DNA of 62,133 nt, counting the filler, from Hausera hauseri (taxonomy: Eukaryota), in assembly GCA_046269625.1 (NCBI GenBank). It is 10 parts of 10 records of this genome, joined end to end, with 100 filler letters (N's around TTAATTAATTAA, not from the genome) between each part and the next. Parts side by side here need not be neighbours in the genome. Positions count along the whole stretch, not along the records: positions 51,091 to 57,530 come from JBJURY010100876.1; 9 more parts are not named here. The stretch is one strand, 5' to 3'. Positions 11,561-57,530 of the stretch are shown here, one piece after another (the stretch's first letter is position 1; each line of letters opens with the position of its first letter). Below the pieces are notes generated by a model. It was not told the origin of the DNA and ran no database searches. It saw only the letters and a list, made by a program, of their open reading frames with translations. Position numbers and translations under genes: made by a program.

Positions 11561-11664
11561 TACTTTTGCGCCAACTTCAACATCGTTTGTAATAAGAGTT
11601 TCATGACACTATCATCTTTCAATTCCGTCCCGCCTGCTGCTTTTTCTACTACCGCTACTGCTCG

Positions 11665-12810: not shown

Positions 12811-12817
12811 GTCCTGT

Positions 12818-16409: not shown

Positions 16410-16438
16410 CTTTCTGTGATCTTCATTTCTCGTATGTC

Positions 16439-17648: not shown

Positions 17649-18072
17649 NNNNNNNNNNNNNNNNNNNNNNNNNNNNNNNNNNNNNNNNNNNNTTAATTAA
17701 TTAANNNNNNNNNNNNNNNNNNNNNNNNNNNNNNNNNNNNNNNNNNNNCTTTAAGTGATATATAATTATTAAGCTAAAAAATGTGTCTCTAATGTAAACA
17801 ATAATTTTTATAAAAAAAAATTTTTAGTAGATTGACTATAACCAACCATACATTTTAGAAAGTACTATATAAAAAAGAATAAGTTACAGAATGAAATGAA
17901 AAAGATAAACTAATAGAAATTCTTTAATATAAAAAACATACGAAAATTGCTATAAATAGCCAATAAAGTCAGCACAGCGCAAACACACTACAAAGAAGAC
18001 TTTACAAGTGGAAATGCAGTCGAAATTCAAATCACACAAATGCAAATTAAAAGAATGTTTAAAAATATATTT

Positions 18073-35152: not shown

Positions 35153-35160
35153 ACTTACTC

Positions 35161-35185
35161 CTGCTGAAATAAAAATAAAGGTCAA
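35161..35185 (-). promoter_or_regulatory. Putative branch point and 3' splice acceptor just upstream of ATG 35152
   Basis: Minus strand reads TTGAC CTTTATTTTTATTTCAG CAG GAGTAAGT ATG. Confidence 0.5.
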
Positions 35186-35300
35186 TCCTAAGACAAATCA
35201 TCATTTTGAAACAAAACATTTTCTCTGTCTGATGATAGGATAACCCGATCTGTAGTTGTCAGGTTATGCCATCATAAAGTCCATCTTGGTGCCCTTTTAC

Positions 35301-36575
35301 CTATTTATCTCTCTTCCGATTTTTACAGCGCTTATTACACTTTTTGGAAACTAGAAAAATCATCGCTGTTAATATAACAAGAACGAAAATTGACAAACTC
35401 AATATGGCTATCGTCGGTAAACTGCTTGGTTCAATAGAACCTTTTGTGGTAAAAGCATTTTGCGTACTAAGATCTCTATACTTCATTACTTCGATCTTGT
35501 TGTCTACAGTCCGCACTGTATAAGTTTTAGGGTTCTTACCCTTTGCGGTGATTCTAACTATGTAGTCGTGTTGCGGTCGTAATTACCTACATTCAGTTTC
35601 CTGACTACTCTTCCTCAGGATCACAACTTGGTTGGTGTGCATGGTGCGATATTCAATTTTGACGTCTTGATTTAACGTCTCTTCAGCGAAAAATAGAATT
35701 TTATCGCTTTTTTCCAAAATATTAACTAGTATGCTTCCTGGCATTTCGTCCGAAGTGACCATTGTAGTATTGTGAGTTGTACTCGGAGCAGTGGACGGTT
35801 TTCTCGTAGTGGTTGAGAATGGAAGTTCCCATATTCCGTTTTTCGGACGATATACCCGTAAATAAGTACTTCTCTCTCCGGGGTACGTATCATACAAATC
35901 AAATTGCAGCCGATACACTTGTCCTAGTTGTAGTATACAGCATGAAGTAGATCGGCCTGTGGCCAAAAAGCAATACTTTCAGTTAGGAATTGAAGCATTC
36001 AATGGTATAAATCGGACAGAAATTTGTCTGTCTCCAGGCAGTTTCACCTTCGTTTTAATGCGAATACATCGGTTTTTAAAGTTCTTGTAAATCCCAATAA
36101 TGTTCTAGTCCAAAAGTTCTTTAAATGGGTTAGTGCTTCGAATTATTTTATCCGTTTTGGCTTGATTTTCGTTCTTTCGTAGAGGCATTCTTATTGAGAG
36201 TTCAGTAGTTATATAGGCTTGAGCTCCAAACTGATTAGAATAAAACATTTGAAATCCGTATCCGTAGACTTGTCAAAATCCAAATTACAACATCTTCTGT
36301 GCACTCCATACGGAAAATCACATGTTCTCATTGTGAACCCGGTTGCAAAAATTATTTAAAATTTCACATAACTCTGAATGGGTTCACTTGCTTCGAACAA
36401 GGCGCATGGTTTACTCCAATCCATATCGTATACTTTAAGTGATTGCATGTTTTGGATATCCCTTCGTCTTTCTGCATTTTGTAATCTTCCGGCTTAAGTT
36501 ATCGATTTCACCTTCGGTACATACGAAGCGATTAATGATAAGGCGAGAATTATCTATACATACGATATTGGTATA
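35301..36575 (-). pseudogene. Type I membrane protein downstream of integrase: signal peptide, Cys-rich domain, two FN3-like modules, S/T stalk, TM
   Basis: ISYV*IILALSLIASY signal-like segment in frame with integrase; CDFPYGVHRRCC; LQLGQVYRLQF and LRPQHDYIVRITAKG (FN3 LxPxxxYxVxVxA signature); STTTRKPSTAPSTT; TM IAILSLSIFVLVILTAMIFLV followed by a basic/Cys tail. Confidence 0.65.
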
Positions 36576-39500
36576 GTCACGATCGACGATGTTTTCTTTT
36601 CTTTATTTGTATAGTCTAATTTTGTTTTGTTCGAACGCAAATTGTAACGTTTGCTTGGCCTTATTTCCGTTTTAACTACTCTTTGAATCGATATGACCTC
36701 TTCCTTGCCACTTTTGTTTATATAAACTGTGGTTGGTGTAACATTAGTAACTTCATAAGGCCCTCTACCTGTCCTGGTAAGCTTAAGAGACATACCTTTC
36801 TTTGCTACCGGATAGTGTACGTAGGCCCCGTTTCCGGGTTCTAGAGCGTGTGGTTTAGCCTTCTTATCATACTGCTTCTTAAATTGTCCTTGGTATTCTT
36901 TAGATACGTCCTTGGCTATTCCCCAACACTTGTACAATCTCGATTGTAATACTTCGACAAAATTTTGCTCTAAGTCTTCCGTTCTTGTGGTGTAGGGAAT
37001 CAGTCCTAAATCTGTAGGGAGCACAGCTTCTCTTCCATACATCATAAAAATGGCGTGAATCCTGTCGCCCGATGTGGAGTAGTATTAATGACAAACTGTG
37101 TACCTTCTAAAAACTCATCCCAGTCTTTCTGGTCCTTTGCCACTACTGTCGATAAGATTCGTAAAACGGTCGCGTTCATCCGTTCGACCATTTCGTTACA
37201 TTGGGAATGATACGCTGTGGTGGTTAGTCGTTTAATTTCGAAAATCTTGGTAATTTTGTCAAATAAATCGCTCGTAAATTTCCTTCCTCGGTCTGTCAAA
37301 ATTTGTTCAAGTAACCCGTATCTGCAAATAATCTTCCGGACTACTACTTCTGCTAAGGTCTCGGCCTTTTGGTCTACTAACGCTATAAGCTCGACGAAAT
37401 GAGTCAATCGATCTTCACAGGTCAAAATGTATTTGTTGCTCTTGTGAGTCGTAGGTAATGGCCCTACAATATCCATAGACATTGCTTGCATTGGTCTATC
37501 GGGCACATCGATGGGTTTAAGCTCGGCGACGTAGTTTTTCACTTTCCTTTGTTTGGTTGTGCGTTCTTCGCAAGCGTTCACGCAATTTCTTACGTCGATA
37601 TAAATGCTGGACCAGCAGTACTTATTTAATATCCTTTCTAATGTCCTTTTCCACGACATGTGTCCGGCTAAGTATGAATCATGTCCGGCCATGAGTACTT
37701 CCGTACGCAATTCTTTTGGTGTGACTACCAATTTTCGTCCTTTTCGTTCGTAGTATAACACGTTTTTGTGGTTTAAATCTCCAACTACGCAGTATTTGTA
37801 ACCATATCGTCGTAGGTGTTTCCGTAACTGATGACCCTTGGGTGTTACGTTGGTGTCAACGAACTCGATAATCTGTTGTATAACCTTATCTTTTCGCTGT
37901 TCAACAACAATCTTCAATGCCTTATCAAGAGTGAGAGTTCGTTGTCGCTCTACGAAGTTTTCAAGGTGGGCTTTCCTCACTATCATAACTGCGCTTGTTT
38001 TAGTTTTAAATGTCGATAAGGCGTCGGCATCGACATGTTTACTTCCGGGTTTGTATTGAAATTCAATATTGTAACGTGAGAGTTCCTCAATTTATCTGTT
38101 AAGTCTACAGGTTGGATTATTTGCCCTACCCTTTAATGTCGTGATTGCCTTATGGTCAGTAACGATTATAATCTTTTGTCCATAGATCTACACGTTAAAA
38201 TGTCGCAATGCTTCTTTTACCTCTAGTGTTTCCAACTCCGTAACAGAATAGTTCTTCTCTGATTTCTTTAGGGAACGTCCTCCATATGCAATCGGGTGCT
38301 CTAGCTCTTCATCTTCCCGTTTCTGAGCTAATTCATATCCGATACCTTCTTTACTGGCATCCGTTTTGATTATAAACGGTAGGTTGAAGTCAGGATATCT
38401 TAAAACGGGTTCACTAGTCAGAATTTTTTTCATTTCGTCAAAAGCTTTTTGTTCAACATCGGTCCATTTCCATTTGATCCCTTTTTAAGTAAACGATACA
38501 CAGGTACGTTTATCTTTGCATTGTCTGGAACATAAGTAGCATAATACCCACACAGCCCTAACCAGTGTCTCAATTCCTTCTGATTCTGCGGTTACAGGCA
38601 ATCCGATATCTTACTTAATAATGATTTATGCGGTTTCGATCCTCCTTCTCCTACTATATGTCCGAGGTACGATACAGCATTCTGAGCCAATTTGCACTTC
38701 TTGGGATACAGTTTCAGTCCAGCCTGCTCTAGTCTCATAAGTGTACCCTCGATAACCTTTAGATGGTCCTCTTACGTTTTCAATGCGATCATGATGTCGT
38801 CTAAGTAGGCAAACGCGTGTTCCATTTTCATTAGCATTTTATTTATCATACGAGTAAAAATTGCGGGTCCGGTATTTATTCCAAATGGCATAATATTAAA
38901 TTTGTATATACCATCGTGTGTTTTAAACGCCGTTTTGTAACGATCTTCCGCTTCTATCTCTACTTGCCAACATCCAGATTGTAAATTGAGCGTGGTAAAC
39001 CATTTAGCTCCCGAAAGTCTACCCAAAGCTTCCTTTACCGATGGCAATGGGAAGGAGTCCTTCATCATAAGTGTGTTTAGCGCTCGATAGTCGATACAGA
39101 ATCGGTGCTTAGCAGTACCTTTCTTCTTAACCATGAGTATAGGTGAGTACCAAGATCGGTAGCTTGGTCTAATTATGTCGGCCTTTAACATTCGTTCAAC
39201 TTCCTTGGTTATCTCTGGCCTTAGCGAGCGTGGAGGAGGGTACCATTTCGGCATCTTTTGATCCTCCAAATCTATTTCGTCGTTCGATCCAGGCTTTTTC
39301 TTATGTGGAATCGTGAGCCTTAAGGCTCTGGCTCGGCCAATGTCTTCTTCGTTTCTCGCGATAATTCATCTGTAGCGGCAAAGTAATTCGTAAAATCGAC
39401 AATATGTTTCCGGTGAAAATTTAGTTTTAACATTAGGTGGAAATTCGGCACCCTTATACGGTTTCTCTTCAATGATATGTGATGATACTCTATACATGTG

Positions 39501-40200
39501 TCCTAGAGTGGTATTGGCGTACAGTTTGATTGGAGTGGGCGCATTATTCGCTATTCTAATTGGTACTGGGCCTGTTGGTACTCTTGTCAAGATATTGCTC
39601 AGCACGAGGTTTTGTGTCGAGCGATTCTTTTGGTTCAAAATATATTGGCTGATCGTCATCCTGGCGTATCTGATCATATATTAGAATTTCCGTTCTGGGT
39701 GGTATGGTTTTATCTACTGGAATCCACACTTCTCCAATCCACACTTGCCTGCGTTGAAATCGATTGCTATATTAATAATTGTCTCAATAAGTCACATCCT
39801 AATACCACATCATCCGTTAGTTGGTCCATTACTGAAAATTCATGGTGAAAAGATTGTCTTATTATGTGAATTTCTGGTTTCCAACGGAATTTACTTTTCG
39901 ACGATTGTCCAAAAGCTCCAATGCTTCTTGGGTGTGTCGTGGGAGGAGGATATATCATTGTTTCCGTAGGAACTGTGGGATCGATTCATATTTTATCAGT
40001 GATATTTTAGATCCTGTATCTATTAGTGCGTAAACTTCCCAATCTTGCAGTTGAATTTTTGCGAAGGGCCTACCTTCAATTACTGTACCGTAATAACTCG
40101 GTGCTATTTTGGGTTTTCGTATCGTAGACACTTTGTATCCGTTGATGGTGACTTCAGTGGTTCCAACTGGCTGCTTGACTAACTGTCTTAACTCTCCAAT
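36576..40200 (-). pseudogene. pol: Gypsy pol (protease, RT, RNase H, integrase), frameshifted
   Basis: YALIDTGSKISLI (~40020), VLGCD, RFCIDYRALN, MPFG, YLDD, KTDAS, H..AGH, MDIVGP, LTDRG, VERMN, GPY. Confidence 0.93.
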
Positions 40201-40673
40201 AGTTCGTTATTTGTACCATTCGCGTTTTTTAATCTTGGGTTTTTATCCGGCGGCTGAACATCTTGGTTTTGGAGATTTCGTGACTCACATCTTCGAGTAA
40301 ATATTGATTGCGTTTCGTTTGGCTTAGGTATTCTAGGTGAGTAAATCATACCGTGGTTGTCGACTGCTGATTGATGGTGTGGAGCCGAGGTCCTCTCTGT
40401 TTCGTGGATCTTGCGCAATATCTGATAGAGTTTTTTTCCTTCGTAGGGATCCTCTAAACTAAACGGCTTCCGATAGATGTCTGTCTGGCACGAGCTCGTA
40501 GATTGTTTCTCGCAATCTTCGTATATAGGTGCTGTTGTCGGCAATATTGGTAGTAGTAGTTTCATAACAGAGTAATTTTTGTGCCTTCTCGGCCTAGGGA
40601 TGACGTCTCCTCCCTTAGGCTCGTCATCATCGGAATCATTTCTTCGTGTCTTACTGACGATGAATTTCTGTCT

Positions 40674-42545
40674 TTAATCGAATATGTGTCTTTTACGTTT
40701 TCGATTATGGTTGCCCACATGTCGTTCCACATCTGTTTTCCATGTACCTTCTTCATAACCCTTTAAGAATTTGCCGAAGGGTGTAATAATAGCCGTTAAA
40801 ATTTTGCACAAAAATCCTGTTAAGGTGAATATCTCGTATCCATTTATGATTGCATGAATTATAGCTAGAAATTCTGACGTGGCTTGTCCGAATATCAGGA
40901 ATCGTCCCCAGATTTTATACAATATCTCTGTAGTTACTTTTTTATAGTAACCAACTCCAAATAATGACTCACATTTCGTCTGGCAGCGCGAATCCTCCAA
41001 TATTGTATACATTGCTCTGTTTAATTCATATGTACGTTGGCGGGGAAAAGCGAGAAATTGTCTAAACGCCTCTACTTCTTTTGGTCGGTAAATACCTTTT
41101 ACGGCTGTATCTTGAAATTTATCATCGGTTATTCCTTTAATCAGGTTTGTTCCTGTCAGCTTGGTAGGTGGTGCGATAATACCGCCGTTCGGTATACTTA
41201 CCCAGTCGGTCTCGCTACGTCTGAACATGGGCTCTCCTAAGCTAGTTTTACAGTCTCTCAAAATTGTCGGGTGAGTGGCGTTTGCCAACAACACTCTGGT
41301 AATCGGTGTTACTAATCTCGTTACGTCCTGATATATTACTGGAAGTTCTTGTATACACCTCTTCTTTTCTACATTAATCGTTACGTCTTTCTTTTTACAT
41401 TCATAGGTCAATAAGACCTCTCCGGTTACTCGTTTAAAAACACCCTCCTTCATCGGAATTAACGGTGATGCCAACTCGAGATTGGCGTATATCAGGGCCA
41501 GTTTAGTTCTCATGATTTCCAAGTCCAATTTACAGTCGTTTGTTATCCTTTTGTGGTTTGTCCTTTATAGTAGAAATAGTGGTCTTTGTTCTTCAAATAG
41601 TCTTCAATCCGGATGTCCTGAATCGCGAGTTTGAACGTTCTAGAATTTATTTCTCTCTCGGCTACAAAAAATGCTTCATAGTTGGTGGCATACATTACGA
41701 CGTCGCATCTGGTGAGCATAGCTTTTTTTTACAAATTTTAATCCATGAGTATCAGAAATCAGTATCGTAGGTATTGACTGTTCGGCTACATCTTCTCGTG
41801 TTTTAGAGTTAGTTTCCATGCTACTTATTTATCGTTTTCCTGCCGTTTCATTGAACTTAAGCTCTTTAATCTTGATAAAGTTGCAATCGGTCTTGGCTGG
41901 GGGTTCCCAAATTTCTACGGAACTTCAAAACGAGCATGTGCCATCTTGAATGTGGCACTTATGGTTCTCGGTGTAAAGTTTAGTAACACTATGTACATCA
42001 CTTTCTGTATACTCATTTTGGTTTCGTAAAAATCCACTACCACGACGTTTGACTCTAATCCCTTTCCTGTATCGTATTCCGAACTGTGACAATGTCCGAT
42101 ATGCATATCCAGTCTTCCTGCTGCCACTTTATACACTGTCATTATTTTCCCTTCTTGCATTTCCATTTCCGTACCTCCCCATTTTATTCTGCCCGTTTCT
42201 CTAGCTTGTTTACAATGCTGTCGCTTTAAATTCATCGAAATTAGCGAAGTTGTTGGCTTAATTATTGACGAGTGTCCATGTACCAGTCCATAATGGAAAA
42301 CGGTGCGAGATTGCCGCAACATACATTCTACTTCGTCCAAGGTAAGTAGTTAGCGTTGTTGATATAATATATAACTTTTCTCTTTTGTCTCTAATCTGTG
42401 GGGCCTCGCATCTTCGCACATTTCCAAGTCCATTAACGATTAATTTTGGCCAAGTCCGAATTTGTCACAATCATATACTGTGACTGCGCCCATTTGTCTT
42501 ATTAACATCATCATGGTCAAAAAATTGATAAGCCAGTTTGATTCA
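40674..42545 (-). pseudogene. Chuvirus-like / gB-type (class III) fusion glycoprotein
   Basis: Signal WLINFLTMMMLIRQMGA then VYDC..SL..LEMC; ECM..SRTVFHYG..HSS; HC..A.ETG; AAG..GHC..NVVV; KC..DGTC..W.PP..C; DCKLDLEI; GEV..YEC; CIQELPV..P.TRVL; GIY; FP..R; W..FLIFG and TM. The Cys and motif spacing follow chuviral G. Confidence 0.8.
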
Positions 42546-43801
42546 TTTGCTCTGCTATTTCCAGTCACATTTCGTAGCAGATCTCCGAATCTACTGTTAT
42601 CGAAGAAGAATCTATTTTGATGTTCTTCTTCTTTTTCGAATAGCTTCGTCCAATCCACTTCTCGGGACAGTTTCCTTGCAGCCTTCCTTGCCAAGCTAGT
42701 AGTCTTGTTAAATTCACCTCGGTTCGGGTTGGTTTTGATGTCCAGATATAGCAACACTTTTCTCAATTCCTCTATGGTGTTTTCTACCATAATTTTCTCG
42801 ATTATCAATTTACCGCTTAGAGTACTTCTGGTTAATTTACACCGAAGGCCTTTCATAGCCTTTGCGGCGTTCGCTATGGCTTCCTCTTTCTCATCTAATA
42901 CATTACCGCCGAGGCTAGAGTGATTTACTATTCGTATCAGGTCTTTCATAAGTTCGTTCAGTTCCTCATGATCCTCACTAAAGGTGGGTATAGACATTTG
43001 TTTCAACTCTTTGATTAAATCTCCATTGTAATCGATTTCCTCTCGTGGTTTCCGCGGCCTACCGACAGAACGCTTCTGTTCTGTTACAGCAGATATATTG
43101 CCATTTATGGGTACTAAATTTTTATCGTATTGTTCATTATCTTCATTTGTCTGGAGGTACTCGAAATATACTGTTGGATCTCGGACTCTTATTATTCGCC
43201 CTACCTGCTGTTCTGCTTTCGCCCTCCGTATAGCCTCTTCCTTTGTTTCATCGATAGTGGTGGCTACCACTAACCGGTTTATTTTACCAGGAATAATTCC
43301 GACCTCTATCAATAATTCTGACTCGTCTAGTATACTTCCTCTAAAATAAAGTCTATAGCTCAGCTCCTGGGCATATCCATTATCCCTTATCCATAGTAAT
43401 ACATTTATACCAAGGAGTGCGTAGTAAATTCTTGTTCCTTCTCGTACATCCAGTCTGATACTATCTTTACTAGGATCCTTTCCTCAGCCTTTACCTTTAA
43501 GATTTTAGCATATTCTTTGAGTAAAAGCTTAGGTACCGTACTGGAAGTCGTACCTTCACTAGCTAACTTAGTTAAGGTAGGGACTAGATGTCTCAATTGA
43601 TTTTCAGTGAGGTTCATTTTAATTAATTGAATTAAATCTTTTTCGGTTTGTACCGGATCCAGCAGCATTCCTACGTTGAACCTTTGGTCAGGAGAATATA
43701 CCTCCATTTCATCCAGTTGTATTGGGGTTTTGGGATTCTCGGCAATCATTGCGTCTAAATATGCCTCCCATTCTGTTTCATTATCGTTATCCGGGAGTTG
43801 A
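42546..43801 (-). pseudogene. Unidentified helical ORF (ORF-X) running in frame into the glycoprotein signal peptide
   Basis: ORFs 43405-43749 and 42440-43312 are linked by one frameshift (INVLLWIRDNG..ELLIEVG); contains an AT-hook-like GRPRKP. Confidence 0.5.
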
Positions 43802-44203
43802 NNNNNNNNNNNNNNNNNNNNNNNNNNNNNNNNNNNNNNNNNNNNTTAATTAATTAANNNNNNNNNNNNNNNNNNNNNNNNNNNNNNNNNNNNNNNNNNN
43901 NCACTTTTTTGCCCCTTCCCCTTTCTTTCCCCCGACACCCCATCGACTTCGGTCCTTCACCATTCGATGCGTCTTCCGTCCCCCATCATTTCTGTGTGCT
44001 ACATATGGCCGTGCACCACTTCCTTCTTACATCCGCATTTTTCGTGCACTTCTGCTTCCGGGGTGCACCATGCACCGGTGCACGGAGGTTTCCTGAATTA
44101 TCTGTGTCGAAATCTATCGGGCCAGTGTGTGTTTCGGCATCATACACGCTTTGCATTGGCTGCAAGGGGGGCGGGGGCGTGATCCAGAACCCGCATTTTT
44201 ATA

Positions 44204-45780
44204 CTACTTTCCTCCTATTATTTCCGGTGATATGTCTGTCACTACTATGAAGGTTACGCGCTTCTGTACTCCCTTGAGTTCCCCATTTTCAGACAGTTCA
44301 CTCATCCAATCTGGGGACCTACCATTTGCACAACGGAGTATGATATCTGATTTCTCCAGCTGGATATCAGTTAGTCTTTCAAACATCTTTTTACTCATCA
44401 CGTTCACCCGTGCCCCTGTGTCCAATAGGCAGTTTTCGCATCTATCTTGTACCTTTATTTTTAAACCTGGCTGTCCTTGTAGTTTATCGTACGTGATACT
44501 CTTTTCCGTCAATCCTTCCAAGGAAAAATCCTCTCCATGGAGGCCTCGTTTTGACTTTCTGTAATTCGTACTTCTTCGTTTCTGTCTCCAAATGTTCGCT
44601 TTCTTATGAACCTCCGTACCTCTTCCTTTGTTCTTTCCTTCATTTCTTCAATGCCTTGTCCATTCCTTTGAATATTTTTGACGCCTTTGGAGTTGTTTTA
44701 TGCAATGTCCCGACTAGCTCCACTTCTGTCGAGGCTCTGCCTTTTGGGTTTGTCGACTCTGATGGATTCTTCATAGTCCTCGTCAATATTTCCAATGTAT
44801 GCGTGTCTGCTGTTCACTTTTTTTCCATATCTTTTCTGACCATACCCCGCACGCTTGAAATTGTCGGTATACGTATTTTATCCTCTTCTGCTTTTCTGCA
44901 ATTTGGTATAGCACTCTTCTTCCGTGAGCCCTCTATCCTGACATCTATTGCATTTTATGTTTATGAAATTTCGCCTTATGTGTTCTTGCTGACCACACCC
45001 ATAGCATATTATGGGTTCCTTTCGGGTAATTCCTGTTAATGTGTCCTTCTTTCCCGCAACCAAAACATCTTCGTGATTGTTGGAGGTTGCATGTCCGGCT
45101 TGTATGCTCGTCTTTCTGACACGACCAGCATTTCATCATCCTCTTTGCTTGCGTATTGTGTGGTTTGATATCCCTCCTTTCGTGAATTGGTTTGTCAAAT
45201 TTGTGCACTACCACATCCCGGTTACTCCGTCGGCCATCTTTAGTATATTCTCTGTGTTTATCTCTTCCGTCTTTGTTGCTACTTCATGAACTTTTTGTAT
45301 TTTCGCTTTGATTTGTTCTGTTTTTTTTCGTCCCTGCGGTAGATTTTCTTTCTCCCCTCCGGATCTTCACAACAGTTCCTCATCAGTTCCTCTGTTAGCG
45401 CTTCTGGCTTTAATTTGTGACTAAAGATTTCCTTCACAAGCTATTCGATTTTGTTGAAGAAGGCGGCCGGTTCTGCTCCTTTCATTCTCTAGTCCAATGC
45501 CTCCTGCATCTCTCCGCACAGCGCTGAGTTTTGCAGAGACTTTTGTCAACCGATTTTGGTAACCTTTCACCTTCTGGCTCACCAGCTGGTATTTTCCCTG
45601 TGCTTTTTCCGCCAACAGGCACGGGACCGCGGTTTCCCAATCCGTCGCCTACATCTTTATGAAGTCGAAGTATCTCTCGCATTTTCCAATGAAGGTTTCC
45701 ACGTTGTCACCTTTCTGGAATTCTTTCGGCATCAATTTCTTTTCGAAGAAGTCTCTTCACTAATTAAATGAATCTTATTT
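44204..45780 (-). mobile_element. Decayed gypsy gag-protease remnant with multiple zinc knuckles
   Basis: KCWSCQKDEHTSRTC, RCFGCGKEGH, CYGCGQQEH, CNRC; protease LLDTGARVNV..IIG. Confidence 0.8.
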
Positions 45781-46155
45781 TCCTCCGTTCCTGAATTTCC
45801 TCACTTTCTATTGGATGTTTATTGAATTAATTTTGAACTGAATTTAAACATTAATATCCGTTTAAATTCCTCCTCATAACAATGATTCCATTAATTTGAC
45901 GTCTAGTGTATCTATTTACACGTTTATAAATTTGACTTGAACAATCATTTACGGTATTTTCTCAGACTAATTTTATCATTCATATAACTATGTAGTCAGA
46001 TTATTAAATTTAAAAATATTCGTCATTAAGATTTGAACAGTTGTTTTTTGTCACACAAGTAGCTTCACATTGTAACCTCAAAATTGCAGAAAACTTGTAT
46101 GTGGGAATGAATTTTGAAACCTTTTTGCAATTGGGAAATAAAAAATACTATTAGT

Positions 46156-46641
46156 GTGTTAATCAACATATCCATGGTAACCTTTATGCTGAACAACTAC
46201 AGCGAGTTCATGATGCTTTGAATATTCGCCACCCATTACTGTTGAATTGCGGTAGAGCAATCCTACAGCATGACAATGCCCCAGCTCATACATCACGAAG
46301 GATTGAGCAGAAAATTCAGGAACTGCAAGACATCGAAGTCATCCCAATCCTGCTTATAGCCCGGATCTTGTCCTTTTAGATTACTATCTGTTTCGGTCTT
46401 TCACTTTACAAGGGAGACGATTTGGTTCAGAGGAAGAGGTCAAAACCAGAATCGCCGATTTTTTGTCTCCATGACACTTGAATGGTATCGTTATGAGATC
46501 GAGCAATTTGCATGAAGATAGCCTCCAGTCATGGAAAATGATGGACTGTATTTCGAGGAATAATATGATCAGTGTTATAACAATTTGTATAAATAAAATA
46601 CTCGCATAAAAACATGAATAACGTTAGACTCAACGTGGTAA
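46156..46641 (+). mobile_element. Mariner (DD34D) transposase C-terminal remnant with 3' end
   Basis: YAEQLQRV..ILQHDNAPAHTS..PAYSPDLVLLDYYLFRS; stop at ~46563, then a short tail with AATAAA. Confidence 0.88.
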
Positions 46642-46923
46642 TTGGGAAGTGTTTTCATATATTATGTACGCTATATGAAGCTAAACAAAATAACAATATT
46701 CAAGTAGATTGATATTATACGTAAAGCCAAATCTCTAATTCTTATTATAACTATTTAACTATATTCTTATATTTAAACATAATTTGTCTTCAAATTTAGA
46801 ATCAAAATTGTGGAGGTAGAATTGAGTATTCTCAAGAATTAATTGCTATTGGTTATAATATGATTATGAATTCAAATTCCACAAAGGCACTATTGCGTCA
46901 ACGAATTTATCAATTAAATAGTC

Positions 46924-47625
46924 TTGAAAAATTCTACAAAATTTGGCTTTGGGGGTGCAAGATATCCTGTTGTTACAGGTAGTTCAGGAGAAGAAGCATG
47001 CCCAGTATTGGAAGGCAAATACATGCATGTTCCTACTGGACTTCTAGCTTTAACAACTAAACGATATTTAATGGCGATATTCGATGAAACATTTTTCAGA
47101 AATGAATCTACTTTGAAGATGCTCGTGGATATCAACCGTTTTATTTTGCATCAACTAAATGAAAGTAATTTCCTATTGGAAAAATTAAAATTATTCGGTC
47201 CTAGCAACATCAATCAAATTGTTAGTAATTCAGCAATCAATTCTGGTTTGATGAAGGAAGTTCTTTTAATTTTATCATCATTGAATCACTTTTTAGAGAT
47301 TGTTACGAATGAATCAATTACTTTCTTGCCAAGCAATAAAAAGTATTCAAAAACTGATGAACAAATGCAATATATACTGCATTACGACGCATTATCTCAT
47401 TTCCCACTACTGCCGCAACATTCAAAAGAAAAACTCATCAAAGTAGCTTATGATTCGTTTAAATTACCAAATGTACAAATTCCACAAAGTCTCCGGTTGC
47501 GCGATGTTTCATGTGGCGTTGTTAATGGTGACAGACTGGCATTCAAAACGCCGTATTCGATAAAATCCGAAAAGAAATTCATTGGGTCTACTGCGAGAAT
47601 AATTAAAGGACCTTTGAGGGGGAAT
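46924..47625 (+). CDS. Unidentified coding segment (probably a host exon) interrupted by a gypsy insertion
   Basis: ~230 open codons in AT-rich DNA with protein-like composition; ends IGSTARIIKGPLRG at an abrupt switch to the C-rich retroelement leader. Confidence 0.4.
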
Positions 47626-47626
47626 T

Positions 47627-50600
47627 TGGTTACCCGGAAATTTGGGACCCGCCGCTGCGAGGCTGAGGTCCAGGCTGCCCATCCTGCGCCAGTGGGTCAG
47701 ACGGCGCCTTTCGCTTCAGCCCCGCAACACGACCCCAGGCACACTGCCTCTCCATTCTCTATCTTCTTTTTCTTAAATAATAGCTATGTCCATANNNNNN
47801 NNNNACACACTGCGACCATTCACACTTTCATTTCTACCCTACTCCACTCCTCTGATTTCTACCTTACTCACAACGGATATCTAGTACCCCTCGCTGGAAC
47901 TCTACAATCTTACTCAACTCCGATCTGTCTTCATATTCATTTCCGTATCCGTGATGGCATGGATTCGTCACCCACAATTGACACCACGGACAAACTCACC
48001 AAACAACAAATCCCCATCATTCACTTACCCAAACACAAAGCTTCCAACATCCCTACACAACATACACTCCTCACTCATTCACCTTGCACAGAATACTTTC
48101 TCGATAGCCAAAACTCTACTCAAATGTGGTTAAAACTGCACCAATTTTGGCTCCAATCGCAAAACGTCGTCAATTTTTTAGCCAAAGCCAACAGCCTCTT
48201 TTTCCACTTATCAGCTTCCACTAAAACTAAAATCACCAATATAATCTATATCCTTCAACACACTGACCCATATACACAACTCTATAATGCCGTCCTCAAG
48301 CTTACTGAGTCTTCAATCGATTCAATCATTCAAAGGTTCTTTAACGACAACGCCATAGGCCCTCAGAAGTTTCCTGAATTCCTACACACATTCTTGTCTC
48401 ACCTCAACACCCTTGGCGTAACCTCTGAACACAGTCCCGAGCTTCTTCGTCGCTATTTCTTAAATGCATTGCCCCTTCAAATAAGAGCTTTTCTAACTAT
48501 GGTTGAAGACTCCATGGCACTTGACAAGCTAGCCGAATTGGCAGGCAAGGCACACGAAGTGTTGCACTCATACGCAGCATTAACTATCTCTGCAGCATTG
48601 ACAACAGATAAACAACAACAAAATGCAGTGCTGCTGCAACAAATTGCGCAATTTTGCACAGAAAATGAAACATTACAAAAAACAATCAACAATATTAACG
48701 ACAAACTAAACGCAATAACACTACCTCGACGGGGTTTTTCTAGGCCTGCTTCCCCTAATGCGTTTGATCAACGTCAAAGACGGTCGCCTTCGCCCGCGCG
48801 GTTATTAATTTGATATTATCATAGCAAATTTGGCAACAATGCTCAGAAATGCTGCTTCGGTGGTAAATTTTATTCCCCTGGTTTTAATACAAGCAACATT
48901 GTTTGCATCCACCACTCAAAATTTGGCACAAAAGCGCAAAAATGCTTACCTGGCTGCACCTACAGGACACACAATAAGACCAACACCAATAAGTTCACAC
49001 AAAACAGTGGACTAAATTCACCAGCTCCAAAAAACTAATTTTTCCGCTAGGACACACGGCAAGTCCTAACAAAAGCAACAACCAGCAAATCATAGTCGGC
49101 ACATTTCTTATGCTGTAGACACTTTCTTATAGACACCGGCGCAGCAATCTCTCTACTGCCACCAACACAACACATGCAACACAATTACACGTCACAAAAG
49201 CAACTATTCACTGCGTCCGGTGAACCTTTACAAATCTTTGGAGTTAGTACATTAACATTCACTTTCCTACACTTTACAAACACATTCACATGGAAATTTA
49301 CAATAGCTAATGTACACACACCTATACTGGGTTCAAACTTTCTGTCCCACTACAATTTACTTGTAGATTGCAAACAATGTTCCTTAAAGAGCAGACATAA
49401 TCTCAATCAAATCAGCAGCATTTCGATGACCACCCCGGCGATCGCGTCCAGTAAGTCAATACTAAAGAAAACGACTTCCGGTTTGAATTATTTTTATAAT
49501 CATTTATTATATAGAAATTTTTATTACGGTAACAAATACGATATTGCCAACTGCGTGGCACCCATTACTAGTAGCACAGCTGCCAACACCATCTTCAACA
49601 CCAACATTCTGCACCAAATACCACCTAGTCGCAACACCTTGTATATAACTCATACCTCAACTGCATCCAGTCACGATGCATCGACACCTACGGATTTGTC
49701 ATCATTGCCTTCTGATCTACAGCAATACATTTCGTCCTCCTGCACGCGTCTGCTGCAAAAGGACGAATCATTTGTACCACCTCAATCCACCTTTCATCAC
49801 ATAGTAACAGCACATCAAAGACCAATACGTCAAAAGGTCCGTCCGATATTGCCTCGTCGCAGACAGGCAGTGGAGGCTGAGTTTCTCGACCTTGAGAAAT
49901 TAGGCATAATTAGAAGATCCAAATCCCCCTGGTCTTCGCCACTGCATGTGGTTCCAAAAAATGGTACCTTTCGCCCATGCGGTGATTACCGCTAACTTAA
50001 CACCATAACAACAATGGATGTTTACTCTCTACCATTAATCAACGACATCCTTCACAGGCTCCATGGTGCGACCATCTTTTCCTGCATTGATTTGCACAAA
50101 GCATACGACCAAATTCCTGTGGCCCAAGCAGGCATTCCGAAAACGGCTGTAATTACACCTTTCGGCCTTTTCGAGTACCTCTTTATGCCTTTTGGACTCC
50201 GTAGTGCTTCCCAGATCTTCCAAAGGCAATTCGACACAGTTCTTTCAGGCTTAGACTTCGCCTATCCCTATATTGATGACATCTTAATTGCATCATCTTC
50301 CTCGAAGCAACACTCCGAACACCTACGTTTGATCTTCCAATGCCTGCACCAAAACAACTTGCAAATCAATTTCTCCAAATGCTCTTTCTTTCAACATAAG
50401 GTCAACTTCCTAGGATATGTTATTAGCTCCTCTGGACACTCACCTCAGCCAGACCGCATCACACAGCTCAGAAACATCCCGCTTCCACGTACATCAACAG
50501 AGATGCGTTCTTTCCTCGGAACCTTGCACTTTATTCATAAATACGTTCCACATTGCTCCACTCTAACCGCGCCATTTGCATCACTAAGCTCCTGCAAGAA

Positions 50601-50990
50601 GAAGCAGCCTATTCAATGGACCGCCAATCTAGTCAGTGCTTTCGATCGCCTCAAAGACAATTTAAAAACTGTGGAAATCCTAGCCTATTCAGACTCCCAT
50701 GCAGAACTTTTCTTAACCACCGATGCATCCGCAACAGCTTCAGGTGCTATCCTCCATCAAGTTAAAAATGGATACCATGAGCCATTGGAATTCTTTTCTC
50801 GAAAATTCACAGCACAAGAGCAAAAATATTCCACCTTTGACCGAGAGTTGCTTGCAATGGTCCTTGCCGTAAAACACTTTAAACATCTCCTAACTGCACG
50901 AACTTTTACCATGCAAACGGACCACAAGCCCTTGCTTCAAATTCTCACCATGAAATCGCCTTCTCCACGTCAGGAGAGGCAAATATCGTA
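47627..50990 (+). mobile_element. CsRn1/Boudicca-like Ty3/gypsy element (leader, gag, protease, RT, RNase H), lightly decayed
   Basis: PBS-like TGGTTACCC at 47627; gag LDKLAELAGKAH and duplicated CHCC motif (YHSKFG..AQKC; CIHHSKFG..AQKC..GC); FLIDTGA; RPCGDYR; YIDD; TTDAS; TDHKPL. Confidence 0.9.
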
Positions 50991-51136
50991 NNNNNNNNNN
51001 NNNNNNNNNNNNNNNNNNNNNNNNNNNNNNNNNNTTAATTAATTAANNNNNNNNNNNNNNNNNNNNNNNNNNNNNNNNNNNNNNNNNNNNCATAATATCA
51101 TTGAGTTAAATTTTAGTTAATTCTACTTATATTTAG

Positions 51137-52418
51137 ATCCTCCAGAATGCATGTTCTGCAGAGTAATCCTCAGCGAGGTGTACAGATTAACACCATGTTT
51201 ACATATGGTTTGTCTATTTTGTATAGAGCGAATTCGATCACAGGCCCATCCTACACCTTATTGCCCTGTTTGTACATATGAAATCAAATATTGTATTCAT
51301 CATGATGTATATCCATCTGATGCTGACCAATCATTACTGGACGCCCAAACCTTCGACGTCATTGAACCAACGGATCATACCACCTATTATTACACTTGGA
51401 ATGTATCAACTCCATTTTCCATTCCAAATTTTCAATTACACGTGTTGCCTATGTCAAAAAACCTAATAGAATAGCTTACCAATTTAACTGTTGTAATGCT
51501 GAGTACTGTGCCCATTGCTATCAACTAGAATCTCATCATCGATATTTAATCTGTAGCATATGATATTTTTGCCCTCAATTCATTTACTCGTATTTTCATC
51601 ATCCTAGAAGAGCTCTCCCTACTATTACTAATGCACCAATTCCTCAAATACTTCCAACAAGATACTTCCGGTTAGAACAAGAAGCATCAGTTCGAATCGA
51701 ATTCCCAATTCATAAATTTGACCCTTCTACATTATCTAGACCACCACCATTTACTTTTCAGACACCCTTACCCCACATAAATGTCATGACTCTTTTACGA
51801 CAACCTTCTTCTATACCACACCCGCGCTACCATCCAGAAAGAGTTACTAGATCGTTGCCTGAATTACCAGTACCTCTACCCGCAATAATACCTACACCAA
51901 CTATTTCTTACAGTCCACCACTATCAGTATCCTTACAGGAAGATTGGTTCCCTGTCTTCAGTAAATGTCCAATCGACCTTATATCTGACCTAGCCCCTCC
52001 TGATCTATGGGCAACATTACAATCTATCTGCTACGATCAACTTCCTACCTATGAATGTACTATATGTCTTACCGAAAGAATAACGATGGTTCAGTTTCAA
52101 TGTAACCAAAAATTATGTGCAACCTGTTTCAATAAACTTCGTTCCCAATCCCTCAAATCAATCAATCCGGAAGATGCCCTCCATATGACCTTCCAAAATG
52201 GCATTTCATGCCCATATTGCCGGCAACAATCAGTATACTACCACTTCTCCTATACCTACGACAACCGTACCCAACGACTATGCCACTGGATGAATCCAGT
52301 AAACGATGCGGCACTGACAATCAGACCCAGAAATCTTAGCTTCATCAATGCCAGTACTCAGAGTGATCCGGAGGACCGAATCCTTCTCAAAAGGGGGAAA
52401 AATGTTGAGATACTTTAA
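51137..52418 (+). pseudogene. Triple-RING-finger protein with a Pro-rich linker, ending on the PPT
   Basis: RING1 CMFC..PCLHMVCLFC..CPVC; RING2-like CCLC..FNCC..YCAHC..ICSI*YFC (across frameshifts at ~51420-51470); RING3 CTIC..QCNQKLCATC..CPYC; ORF ends DPEDRILLKRGKNV over the PPT. Confidence 0.75.
52389..52402 (+). promoter_or_regulatory. Polypurine tract (PPT)
   Basis: AAAAGGGGGAAAAA immediately before TGTTGAGATA. Confidence 0.8.
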
Positions 52419-52478
52419 CAAAGTTGAGACACTTTAAATGTTGAGATACTTTAACAAACTTGAGACACTTTAACAAAC
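52404..52478. repeat. ~19-bp tandem repeat (gttgaga(t/c)actttaacaaa) x4 at the LTR start
   Basis: Directly visible. Confidence 0.9.
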
Positions 52479-52734
52479 ATTTATGTTTAATTAACATTTG
52501 CGTGACTAACAAACATTTTATGATTATTGAACATTTATTGACCATATTTTGAATTGATTATTGTATTGATGTATTAGTGCGTGTATACAATCTTTTATAT
52601 TACTTTCCCACTGTCTTCATTGTTGAGCTCCATTTGATAAGCATTTTCCCATACTGTTATTTGTGAGTAAATTGTTACCCAATCTTTTAGTGGCTGGCCG
52701 AGCAAAAGTGCAAATTATGGAAAGTAGAAACTTC

Positions 52735-52900
52735 AATTCAAAATTAGAATGAAGTAAATATATTAATGCAAATGACGCATATCCTGAGAGCAAATTCAAA
52801 ATTAGAATGAAGTAAATATATTAATGCAAATGATGCATATCCTGAGAGCAAATTCAAAATTAGAATGAAGTAAATATATTAATGCAAATCCTGAGAGCAA
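52735..52900. repeat. 58-bp tandem repeat, ~3 copies, in the LTR U3
   Basis: aattcaaaattagaatgaagtaaatatattaatgcaaatga(c/t)gcatatcctgagagca repeated. Confidence 0.92.
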
Positions 52901-54549
52901 ACTTCAATTCGTAGAAACGTTAATTCAAAAATAGAAGTTGTAAATATATTGATGTAAACGCATACACATCCTGAAGACCTGATGATTTAATGTTGTAAAT
53001 ATAATGAAGCACATTCTGAAAACATAACGGCAATTTCAAAATTACAATAACGAAAATAACTCTGACGTCAAACAGAATAATACAAATACTGTAAATGAAA
53101 ATGAAAATCTTAAAAATAGAAAAGGACATTTTTAAAATCAAATTATGATATGTCACCGGAAAAAACAGAAATTCAGAAATAGAAAATGACACATTATAGC
53201 GTTACAAGAATTAGTATATAAGCAGAGAGTAATTTACGAACACAATTATCATTGATCGTTGATAGAATTCGAAATCATTGTTGGTCAATTGGACAACATT
53301 AATTCAAATAATTTTGAAGAAGGTCAAGACAGGTCGTTCAACAATTACAAGTAAACGATAGCTATTCTAAGTGGTTGTTGAAGAACATTTATTTAGCAAG
53401 ACGAGAAATATACAAATTTCCCATTCGAGATATTCAACCATAGAAATAAAAGAAAATATATATAGTCATCAATTATCACCGAACATTGAAGAATTCCCAT
53501 CTCGCTAACTAGCTGTCACATTGAATCTGAAAACGTTCGCATTATGGCCCAATATTCGTCTAATTACGAAGGAGCAAACGAGGAAGTTTCGAATGGTATA
53601 TTATTTTATATATTCTTATCATTTCCACTTTTGTTCATACCGCCACAAAGTTTGCGTATATAAATTCTGTACTTGTTGTATATTTATAATAAATGTAGTA
53701 ATATCTTAAATGAAGTTTATTATGATTGCGACCACGATTTGTTGAGTTATGATAAAATGGTAATATGATCGAAATTGTGATACGGTGGAGGAACGAGTAA
53801 TTTCATCTATTCTTAGTTCTGTGAAGTTTCCTGTTAATTCTATTATGAAAATATCCGAAGAATGAATATTTGCGATCGAAAGTTTCCCTAACAATTGTAT
53901 TTATTACAGATGGTAATTATAGAACAATTGAGTTAATTGATAGGCCATGTGGAAGTATTCATGGGTCGATTTATGTTATCAGGATATTTTATCAATACCG
54001 AGAGTTATTTTTATTGTTTCAATTTGGATCGGAATAATTATATCCACCCGACGAAGGTAGAGAATTTATTAATGTCGAATTCAATCTTCATATTAACTCG
54101 TGATGATGTATATATCATAATAGGGGGTAATGTATCTGAAAGACGATCGATGTTTTTTGATCATACCAAGCTAGTACATTGACTAACTTAACTTCTGATA
54201 ATTCTGACGATTCATATTGGTTTTATAGCTGTACAGTAATGGTATTTGATTGAAAGCAGACTTCTTTGGTATCGGAGATTCTGTACTGAACCAATTGATA
54301 GTTTTGAAGGAAACGACCGGGTATTAGATGTAATTTGTGATTATATTTACAGAGGAGTTTTATCGTAATTTATGACCTTGGAAGAAATTTACAATACTAA
54401 ATGAAATGTTATACTGATTTTACAAATTAAGAAATAAAATGGAAGATTGTTTTAATAATCATCGTAATAAATATATTATTAATATTCTTTAAAATGACAT
54501 ATATTACAACCATACTACATGAGTAGTTATGTGACGTACAATGTGCAGA

Positions 54550-54855
54550 CTTAGTGAAGAGATATACTCGTATAATGGAGCTCACAGGTGTGCACATTCC
54601 CCTATATCTCAATAGATTTGTGTATATAAATTTGTATGTGGTAGATAACCATTATTGGAATTGACAAATAGACTTATTCACTAATTGAAGGATCACTGGG
54701 ATACTCACGTATAATGTACAAACTTGTTAAGAAGTATACTCGCATAATAGGGCCCACATGTATGCACCTTCACCCATATCTCAATAAATTTGTATATGGT
54801 AGACGGAATTGACGAATGATTTTATTCATCAATCGAAGGATCACTAGGATACCCA
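54550..54855. repeat. Diverged ~160-bp direct duplication within the LTR
   Basis: tatactcg(t/c)ataat..tgcac..tatctcaata..gaaggatcact(g/a)ggatac occurs twice. Confidence 0.75.
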
Positions 54856-55202
54856 AATGAATGAGAATGTTTATAATTTATAAAGTAGATGTTATAAAGG
54901 GACATCAGAGGACGGCATATGATTCTTAGAGAATTGGTACTTTGACGGACGACCTACGAATCTTAGAAAACTGGTTGTTTTAATAGAAAATAGATAAAAT
55001 TAAAGGAGATAAACCCGTCACACTAAAAGAAATAACAAGAATTAAATGGCCGAAACTAAATATTTGATAACTAATAATTAACCTATAGGAATGTTAAGTC
55101 TGGACAATAGATGTTATGAGTACGCCTTCAGAGAGACTCGAATTTATATGTGGGTACATAGCTAAGGTTTGGAACATTAACCCCTGTATCCAACATATAA
55201 AC

Positions 55203-55220
55203 TGGTGCCCCGAGTGAGGA
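55203..55220 (+). promoter_or_regulatory. Primer-binding site complementary to the 3' end of elongator tRNA-Met
   Basis: TGGTGCCCCGAGTGAGGA; animal elongator tRNA-Met ends ..TCCTCACACGGGGCACCA (from memory, 17/18 complementary). Confidence 0.85.
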
Positions 55221-55305
55221 CACCTTTCACTATATAAGAAAGGATTGTGACTGACAAAATAATTGATAATTTTAGGAGAAATTTTACTTGGATTTTGAAA
55301 TTTAG

Positions 55306-55595
55306 ACAATAGATACGGACCAGTGCAATGTGAAATTTGCTTCGGACCACTGGGCAGGCACTATGCACTATTACTGTGCACACATATTATGTGTGTCAAT
55401 TGCGCGGACCGTTGGCTATCGAAGAGCCAAACGTGTCCTTTTTGCCGAAGGAAAATAAGCTCATACCAGTGTCGGGGAGCCACCGTGGTGGTGATTCCAG
55501 ATGATGAAGAAAATGAGCAAGAAAATGAAATGGAGGAGGACCCGAATGAGCTCTATGTGTTAGGACCAAATCAACTTGTACAAATGCCTATTTGA
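55306..55595 (+). CDS. Small RING-HC protein with acidic tail (no in-frame ATG before the RING; probably spliced)
   Basis: CEIC..LCTHIMCVNC..CPFCR; in-frame stop at 55296. Confidence 0.75.
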
Positions 55596-55837
55596 TTGTG
55601 TATTAAATATAGATTGTATAAAACGGAGTTATGGGCTGACAATTTTTGAAGCTGTTTAAGTTAGAACGAGTGATGAATTAGTCGATTTAAACGAACAATA
55701 CGTGTATGTCTCAAGTTTCCTTAGGAAGCGGTCTGCAAACCATGAGCGGGGTAAAAAGGAGGGAAATGATAAATAATACTGGTTTAATAAATTAAAGTCT
55801 AAGGAAATGGATAAGAATTAAATAATATTGATTTCAG

Positions 55838-56547
55838 GTTGCGTTATATGCCAGAGGTTTCCGGGATTCAAGAAAATACAAAAGAGAAAATTAACTTTCA
55901 ACGGAAAAAGAGAGATCGAACATTTAGCGGAAGAAGGACTAATATTGATATCTAAGAAAGAAAAAAAGTATGTCAAATGTACTATATGCTTACAAGAAAC
56001 GTATTGGTTAGAAAACCTTGATCAACGATTTCCAAAAATATTACATAACAACAAGTGCGAATACTTAGTAAATAGAATTTTCGACAAACATTCCAAGAGA
56101 CAATGCAGAATACAATTCAATATCGGAGAACTATATGAATGTTATCAAGATAGTCCAGTAGCAACATCAGTACTATCAAGACATCCTATCAAACAAGAAA
56201 ATATATTACAGTATATCAAACATCGGACGGAAACTCAGCCAGACTGGTCGCCAAACGTATTCGAATTATGTCAGAATTTAAATTTTATCCCTCCAGAGAA
56301 AGAAAGAGAACCTGAGCGAAATATTCTTGACAATCTTTACCTTCGTGATTTGGAATGCGTGATCTGCTATGTGGATGTAGCACAAGTCATTTTCTTACCT
56401 TGTGGTCATCTGAAAACATGCGAGAAATGTTCAAACCAAACGATGAATTGTCCAGTTTGTAGGAGTATTATAGAAAGACAAGTGACGTATTTTCAGTTTT
56501 CAGAGGAAATTAGCGAAATAACTTTGGCAGATATGGACCTTGATTAA
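55838..56547 (+). CDS. IAP-like protein: divergent BIR plus C-terminal IAP-type RING
   Basis: RKLTF..LAEEGL..VKCTIC..W..H..CEYL (Cx2Cx18Hx3C); CVIC..FLPCGH..CEKC..CPVCR. Confidence 0.78.
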
Positions 56548-56628
56548 TAATTAATATAAATTTATTTGAATAAATATTATTTAGTTTGTATGAATTTGCT
56601 GTGATAAAGTTAAATAAACTTATTGTAG

Positions 56629-57137
56629 AACCATCGGTTATCAACAGTATGACTCTAGCCAACCTTAATGAGTGGGCAGTTCAAGTAATGACGATAAAGA
56701 ATCAACCACCTAAATTAGCATATGAATGGTACAGATTGTATAATAACCCATTACTCGACAGGATAATCGAGTTGGGATATTCTAAACATTTGACGATGAT
56801 CGCTATCAAAACTGATGAGAATGCAGAATATGAAACATTGCCCAAGATAATTACTGATATATACCTGATGCAGCTAATGGATGGTGATTATTATCACGGA
56901 GTTCAATGCTTGATTTCGATATTAAAAGAAAAAGAGGAAGAAGTAAAAGAGAGATGTATAGATCTTACCCGTACAGTTTGGATCTGTATAAATTGTAGGA
57001 AAAATCAAGCAAACATAACTTACCTACCGTGTGGACATATTTTTCATTGTAAAAAATGCACTTCTGCACACTCGCTGAATCCGACATGTGTTATGTGCAA
57101 ACTGCCTATAAATGAAGCGTGTACTGTATATATATAA
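56629..57137 (+). CDS. IAP-derived UBA-like plus RING protein
   Basis: NPLLDRIIELGYS..YETLPKIITD resembles the XIAP/cIAP UBA; CINC..YLPCGH..CKKC..CVMC..VYI is an IAP-type C-terminal RING. Confidence 0.72.
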
Positions 57138-57294
57138 TAAAATGGATAATGTTCTAATCTTTTTTAATAACAATGGCGCAGGAACATCAGTACAATACTC
57201 GATCCCGAGGACGATTAACACAGGGTCAATCAACAGCAATCAATGAGATTGATTTAGATGAGGAAATCTTAGCCCTACTAATAGTTCAGATACT

Positions 57295-57530
57295 ATGAGT
57301 ATAACATCTGCTCCGGGAACGCTAATTGACATAGATTCATTACAATTATCTCCCTCACCAGTAAACTATCAATGGACAAGAGGAGTTAATGGTCGACGAA
57401 GACCATCTCGAGAACAATACCGTAGCACATTTAATTCACGACAATTGACGCAAAGAATAACTAATCAGGAATTAGAATGTCGAACACGTTATGAAATACA
57501 TAATGTAAAAGTAAATGATTTAAGATCAAG
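57295..57530 (+). CDS. Start of a further ORF of unknown function (accessory protein or gag), cut by the contig end
   Basis: Open from ATG 57295 to the contig edge; preceded by ctaat..ttcag. Confidence 0.4.

Follow-up and report, generated by a model that had tools for sequence, protein, structure and literature searches.

A contig of about 6.4 kb (34% GC) from the genome assembly of Hausera hauseri (GCA_046269625.1; record JBJURY010100876.1) was found to carry a long terminal repeat (LTR) with genes for RING and IAP-like proteins on either side of it. It was analysed as positions 51091-57530 of a stretch of 62,133 nucleotides, referred to here as the window, in which unrelated contigs are chained by spacers of the form N44-linker-N44; the finding concerns this one contig as a whole. 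Its anatomy and the way in which sequencing data align to it support its derivation from an LTR retrotransposon that carries RING and IAP-like genes. More specifically, we consider it probable that the contig is the junction of polypurine tract (PPT), LTR and primer-binding site (PBS) of a highly repeated element with such genes at both of its internal ends, likely a large Ty3/gypsy element of the Burro type whose predicted E3 ligases would keep the host cell alive. A first-pass annotation had described the LTR as having these genes on either side; both flanks do carry them, but it is preferable to regard the flanks as the 3' and 5' internal ends of an element joined through a single LTR.

The anatomy consists of three features:

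52389-52402, plus strand: polypurine tract, 14 of 14 purines (AAAAGGGGGAAAAA), with TGTTG directly 3' of it
52403-55195, plus strand: LTR of 2,793 bp, 30% GC, with TGTTG...CAACA ends
55203-55220, plus strand: primer-binding site of tRNA-Met type, starting 7 nt past CAACA

Among the contig sites listed, the 14 nt before the other nine TGTTG sites contained only 5-8 purines. The LTR termini form an inverted repeat in which 10 of 11 bases match, with one gap, and tandem repeats of 36 bp (52400-52473) and 58 bp (52735-52889) lie close to the 5' end. The 18-mer of the PBS is identical at 16 of 18 positions to the tRNA-Met PBS printed in PMC1084362. Sequence comparison also turned up phage tRNA-Leu genes whose 3' letters are the same as the PBS complement, and so the assignment to tRNA-Met has the published animal PBS as its basis. 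The combination of CAACA and PBS occurred once in the window and in none of 100 shuffles. A PPT, an LTR with TG...CA ends and a tRNA PBS together are LTR retrotransposon anatomy, and it is real; all three had been proposed at these positions beforehand. The PBS does not adjoin the LTR directly; 7 nt separate them. When metagenomes were scanned for CAACA followed by a spacer and the PBS, nine matches were obtained, of which six, all from one metagenome, were AT-rich LTR-like loci with CAACA, 6-7 nt and the same PBS. Since the same layout recurs in these six loci, the 7-nt spacer is a genuine feature of such elements. Two further matches (L007 and L009) had spacers of 2 nt, and L006 was rejected as a related locus, being a bacterial chance match of the pattern. 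The six loci (L001-L005 and L008) form an AT-rich LTR element family in their own right, with the Met-type PBS, long non-coding leaders and, in most, a short distance ahead of the LTR end, an open reading frame (ORF) of about 180 aa; L008 carries a DEDD exonuclease (Pfam RNase_T, E 1.7e-10).

The repeat status of the contig was assessed in two sequencing runs, X1 and X2, which contain 0.58 and 0.08, respectively, of the words of the stretch. Contigs aligning at 80% likeness or more numbered 10,880 in X1 and 1,346 in X2, most of them 80-95% alike. With two boundary bins excluded, the median summed depth was 11,678 in X1 and 324 in X2 over the 16 internal bins, against 13 and 0 over the 12 bins of the LTR interior; summed contig depth is not copy number, a caveat that tells against too literal a view of these values. 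In X1, 27 contigs track the sequence as far as 52406, where they have entered the LTR by four bases, before running into mixed continuations (agreement 0.53), so that conservation breaks off at the LTR start. The overall pattern shows that diverged copies of the flanks are numerous and copies of this version of the LTR few, and it reads as a large family in which the PPT, the LTR tip and the PBS are conserved whereas the LTR bodies are variable. Because the flanks match thousands of diverged contigs in two runs, the RING and IAP-like genes are not single-copy host genes, the outcome that the first-pass annotation had named as fatal to its proposal.

Four features follow the PBS:

55299-55595, plus strand: RING4 gene with an acidic tail (Pfam zf-RING_2, E 5.2e-10); ATTAAA at 55602
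55822-56547, plus strand: IAP-like gene with a degenerate BIR, a UBA-like helical bundle and an IAP-type RING (Pfam zf-C3HC4_3, E 2.7e-13); AATAAA at 56569
56649-57137, plus strand: UBA-like and RING gene with its own ATG (Pfam zf-C3HC4_3, E 5.3e-9); stop overlapping AATAAA
57173-57530, plus strand: start of a further ORF, candidate gag or polyprotein N-terminus, with a frame change near 57260 and running to the contig end

Three lie before the PPT, at what would be the 3' end of the internal region:

51121-51474, plus strand: RING1 frame (Pfam zf-C3HC4, E 4.4e-5, 23.7 bits, cut-off 21)
51431-51575, plus strand: second RING-like Cys cluster, with frame changes near 51440-51460 and a stop at 51561-51563 that disrupt it
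51564-52418, plus strand: Pro-rich linker and RING3 (RING3 at about 52056-52229), in a frame that crosses the PPT into the LTR

Pfam recognises RINGs in five frames (opening at 51121, 51564, 55299, 55822 and 56574), and the three after the PBS score well above the cut-off. Those of RING3 (RING_XB3-XBAT31, E 1.1e-5; zf-C3HC4_3, E 8.8e-5) are both under the curated cut-off, and in this copy RING3 is without its His ligand. The second Cys cluster gave no Pfam match, even when read through with X. The estimate of about six RINGs thus stands for five, the sixth being a broken motif, and zf-C3HC4_3, one of the families proposed for checking, was matched in the 51564, 55822 and 56574 frames. The block before the PPT had been described as a triple-RING ORF running onto it; the RING3 frame does cross the PPT, but frame changes and a stop mean that the block is not one ORF. 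Longer proteins containing this block were found in none of 1,556 candidates, which is weak evidence. After the PBS the three ORFs are open, as claimed, but those at 55299 and 55822 have no ATG before their first domain and would need splicing. The RING1 frame likewise has no ATG ahead of its RING; the contig begins at 51091 and so lacks what lies upstream. In both runs the summed depths over the ORF at 57173 rank among the highest; it had no Pfam match, and from its position it is presumed to be gag. Its only viral match, L013 (38% over about 50 aa), was rejected as a relative, being short and of low complexity. The block at 51091-52402 is C-rich (GC skew -0.32) and that at 55203-57530 is G/A-rich (+0.12), and RING1 resembles RING4 (33% over 42 aa); the contrast in skew and this likeness hint at separate capture or duplication histories.

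The IAP identity of the second gene after the PBS was examined in several ways. Neither BIR nor UBA gave a Pfam match at E<=0.1 on the contig, and both appear, in degenerate form, only with Atlas and with custom sensitive profiles. For the IAP-like ORF, Atlas ranked BIR and RING clusters first (0.91; 181 of 256 features), and a profile built from 54 canonical BIRs scored 13.8 bits, as against 6.9 for the best of 1,000 shuffles. The closest relatives are P0001 (52%) and P0002 (50%, 403 aa, on a 16-kb contig), followed by P0003; the BIR spacing C-x2-C-x18-H-x3-C is common to all three and the IAP-like ORF, and P0002 and P0003 have an extra, Pfam-recognised BIR ahead of the aligning region, a canonical first BIR that is absent from the IAP-like ORF. 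In a UBA/RING tree (from a quick search only, with rows picked as best hits) the BIR ORF grouped with P0001, P0002 and P0151 (SH-aLRT 97) and the third ORF was unplaced. The structural model is confident at the middle helices and the RING, and its fold matches were the RINGs of cIAP1/cIAP2, XIAP and IDOL, with baculovirus IAPs as the best viral ones; the UBA-like bundle gave a weak match to a CUE-like ubiquitin-binding fold (Z 4.6, rmsd 2.4, 48 aligned). Sequence and model thus both place a predicted IAP-type RING at the C-terminus of this gene. For the third ORF, the RING has the XIAP RING as its best PDB match (E 2.4e-4). A profile of 15 sequences scored its UBA-like segment at 12.3 bits against 4.9 for the best shuffle, a comparison that is partly circular because a motif present in the query guided the choice of profile; a first, noisy UBA profile did not match this ORF. 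The single-sequence model of the UBA-RING ORF (pLDDT 39.7) was uninformative.

Inspection of the sequence suggested how the frames lacking an ATG might be expressed, as candidate phase-1 acceptors stand before all three of them (51136, 55305 and 55837). The following candidates were noted:

55742-55781, plus strand: candidate first exon of the IAP-like gene, 13 codons (sequence inspection)
55782-55837, plus strand: candidate GT-AG intron, 56 nt (sequence inspection)
53544-53595, plus strand: candidate ATG-bearing leader exon with a phase-1 donor, within the LTR (one of three; pattern scan; speculative)

The 13-codon exon and the 56-nt intron together would give the gene at 55822 a start. Each of the three genes after the PBS has a poly(A) hexamer no more than 32 nt from its stop, for which the joint chance in local shuffles is about 0.004. 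An Rfam search gave no match.

In the reading that we prefer, the whole element would run LTR, PBS, RING4, BIR/UBA/RING, UBA/RING, presumed gag-pol, RING/RING/Pro-rich/RING, PPT and LTR, and the single LTR seen here between a 3' and a 5' end would result from a tandem pair sharing an LTR or from the collapse of two LTRs by the assembler. A long unspliced genomic RNA would be reverse-transcribed from a tRNA-Met primer, and the accessory genes would be expressed through short RNAs, either spliced or separately initiated and polyadenylated. E3 ligase activity is established for IAP-type RINGs, and we infer it for the RINGs of the contig: the IAP-type ones would recruit an E2, the UBA-like bundles would bind ubiquitin and the degenerate BIR would select the substrate. 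What the ligases act on is the least certain step; by analogy with the B-IAP of Burro1 we favour the caspase or cell-death pathway, in which case cells and lineages with active copies would be favoured.

Several observations weigh against this reading, in whole or in part. Pfam found no reverse transcriptase, integrase or recognised gag on the 6.4-kb contig. Relatives with genomic context were found neither in viral contigs (searched with the BIR ORF, with two alignments, with the PBS pattern and with an integrase from the env-pol contig at 33822-43801, described below) nor in metagenomes (searched with one alignment); that env-pol contig has no blastn or tblastx similarity to the RING contig, and the metagenome loci with the same PBS have no other sequence in common with the window. 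In the IAP-like gene the canonical BIR spacing, C-x2-C-x16-H-x6-C, is not present, and the BIR is modelled with low confidence (pLDDT about 35-60). Binding of caspases or of an IAP-binding motif (IBM) by this BIR is doubtful, because its zinc-ligand spacing is altered, it has no Pfam match and confidence in its model is low. All of the splice sites are candidates only, and with internal poly(A) signals the genomic RNA would have to be made by read-through. At sites where this copy differs from the majority, 24 of the 35 scored within ORFs were non-synonymous (40 such sites were listed and 879 further ones exist; of those listed, four that lie in spacers and one that precedes an ATG were dropped), which fits decay of this copy after insertion. 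Finally, BIR, MATH, BCL2 and ankyrin motifs in Burro lie inside one polyprotein of about 4,900 aa (PMC6431247), rather than in separate genes ahead of gag.

The same facts were set against other explanations. The strongest rival, which we nevertheless think rather unlikely, keeps the element and changes the target: the RINGs would serve in counter-defence, as E3 ligases directed at the degradation of factors in silencing or innate immunity (piRNA pathway, chromatin repressors or NF-kB regulators), in the manner of viral RING proteins. Such factors are the main rival target because the BIR spacing is non-canonical and four of the six RINGs are not accompanied by a BIR or UBA, and the only BIR is degenerate. 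Viral adaptor ligases have an acidic tail or a Pro-rich linker, with which the tail of RING4 and the long linker of RING3 may be compared. Burro1 is moreover repressed by PIWI (PMC8532177). Speaking for the cell-death pathway instead, IAP-type RINGs occur together with UBA-like segments in the two genes that precede the presumed gag, relatives of the IAP-like gene retain a canonical BIR, and the B-IAP of Burro1 is reported to act on caspase-mediated death (PMC13465017).

The missing retroviral enzymes, together with the lack of a family match for the ORF at 57173, would also suit a non-autonomous LTR element in which gag-pol has been replaced by captured RING and IAP-like genes and which is mobilised in trans. 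This seems to us distinctly improbable, since only 1.3 kb of the 3' internal end and 2.3 kb of the 5' internal end are represented, and the ORF at 57173 sits at the place expected of gag and belongs to the parts that are shared most widely. Around a solo LTR one expects a target-site duplication rather than a PPT and a PBS, each exactly in place. The presence of both here largely refutes the idea that such an LTR was inserted into a cluster of RING/IAP genes present in many copies, whether in the host or in an endogenous large DNA virus. The unequal 5-mers that flank the LTR (AAAAA and TATAA) also speak against it, as do the other copies, which retain the PPT and TGTT and then continue with different sequence. 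The genes do resemble compact DNA-virus genes, with stops beside poly(A) hexamers, the best viral fold matches of the modelled IAP-like protein are baculovirus IAPs, and host IAP families can exceed 150 genes (PMC7831173), but the chance that this explanation holds is very slight.

Burro/GYPSM1, a group of giant planarian Ty3/gypsy elements of about 30 kb, is the closest described parallel, having multi-kb LTRs, very many copies and BIR and RING-type cargo tied to apoptosis and ubiquitination. Its polyprotein contains AIR1 RING-like, MATH, BIR, ankyrin and BCL2-like motifs, and meddling with apoptosis and ubiquitination has already been proposed for it (PMC6431247). A RING and BIR region of Burro1, termed B-IAP, reportedly shields stem cells against apoptosis mediated by caspases (Lee et al. 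2026, as cited in PMC13465017), and the Burro1 family is found in land and freshwater planarians (PMC13465017). The statement in the first-pass annotation that a Burro element carries an IAP-like gene was therefore sound. B-IAP resembles the window in combining RING and BIR on an LTR element, but it is one region, whereas here there are four RING genes and a degenerate BIR. Compared by description, the contig also differs from Burro in that its PBS is followed by three separate RING/IAP mini-genes and its PPT preceded by a multi-RING block; an element of Dugesia tigrina has accessory ORFs upstream of gag (PMC6431247), as the element proposed here would. The IAP-like gene shares with cIAP1/2, XIAP and baculovirus IAPs the order BIR, UBA-like, C-terminal RING, and its RING fold is closest to cIAP and XIAP, but cellular and baculovirus IAPs have H-x6-C where this gene has H-x3-C, and it lies between a PBS and a presumed gag. 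Captured non-retroviral ORFs and long LTRs are also features of the rotifer elements Juno and Vesta, which carry a DEDDy exonuclease; RING or apoptosis terms are absent from the available text of PMC5408684. Literature topic searches, with most subscription papers and Repbase outside their coverage, turned up no account of RING/IAP genes standing separately between PBS and gag, nor of several RINGs in a block ahead of a PPT. The idea of an IAP-carrying LTR element is already known, and the four-gene layout at both ends is possibly the new part. Long LTRs and an accessory ORF also occur together in the plant LTR element Ogre.

Other contigs of the window carry retroelements of their own. On the minus strand, 33822-43801 holds a decayed Ty3/gypsy polyprotein with broken frames, in which a Monjiviricetes-type fusion env lies upstream of protease, reverse transcriptase, RNase H and integrase. 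This env-before-protease order is as reported for Burro, where env stands between gag and protease (PMC6431247), and offers indirect support for a pol of this kind in the RING-bearing element; the contig itself is unlinked to the RING contig. After its integrase come a membrane-anchored segment and, near the 3' end, an exonuclease-like stretch weakly similar to the DEDD exonuclease of L008 (25% over 83 aa); a ubiquitin-like stretch before env is a weak lead, and Ubi/SUMO and BCL2 were not established. A second gypsy element (9685-17648, minus strand) has zinc knuckles, reverse transcriptase-RNase H, integrase and an env-like ORF of 643 aa with no clear Pfam family. A third gypsy pol fragment with reverse transcriptase and RNase H (43902-50990, plus strand, with zinc-knuckle remnants on the minus strand) is cut by the join beside the RING contig, and its reverse transcriptase ORF at 50014-50990 was rejected as a linked pol because it belongs to another contig across the N-linker join. 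Elsewhere, 25936-26427 is a fragment of a piggyBac-type transposase (Pfam DDE_Tnp_1_7), and 17749-24278 (minus strand) encodes a divergent NSD-type histone methyltransferase (PWWP, PHD, C5HCH) in long exons, with one relative found (32%). The contig at 4566-9584 (54% GC) is bacterial, with an autotransporter of 1,257 aa and an alpha/beta hydrolase, and is a contaminant or comes from a symbiont.

A wider proposal, which we put forward tentatively and at somewhat less than even chances, is that the contig represents a giant LTR lineage, either a sister of Burro or independent of it, that may lie outside planarians. Its four separately expressed RING/IAP genes, with six RINGs in all, would form a virus-like accessory set placed at both internal ends and would use leader splicing and internal polyadenylation like a complex retrovirus, and through its rewiring of host ubiquitination the lineage would have reached very high copy in two organisms or more. 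If this is true, the larger ligase family would test whether cargo that manipulates the host arose a single time or is a strategy that giant retroelements repeat and expand, and the small separate ORFs would be easier subjects for assay than a polyprotein of 4,900 aa. It would also be a reason for caution, as apparent expansions of host IAP and RING genes in invertebrate annotations may be element cargo.

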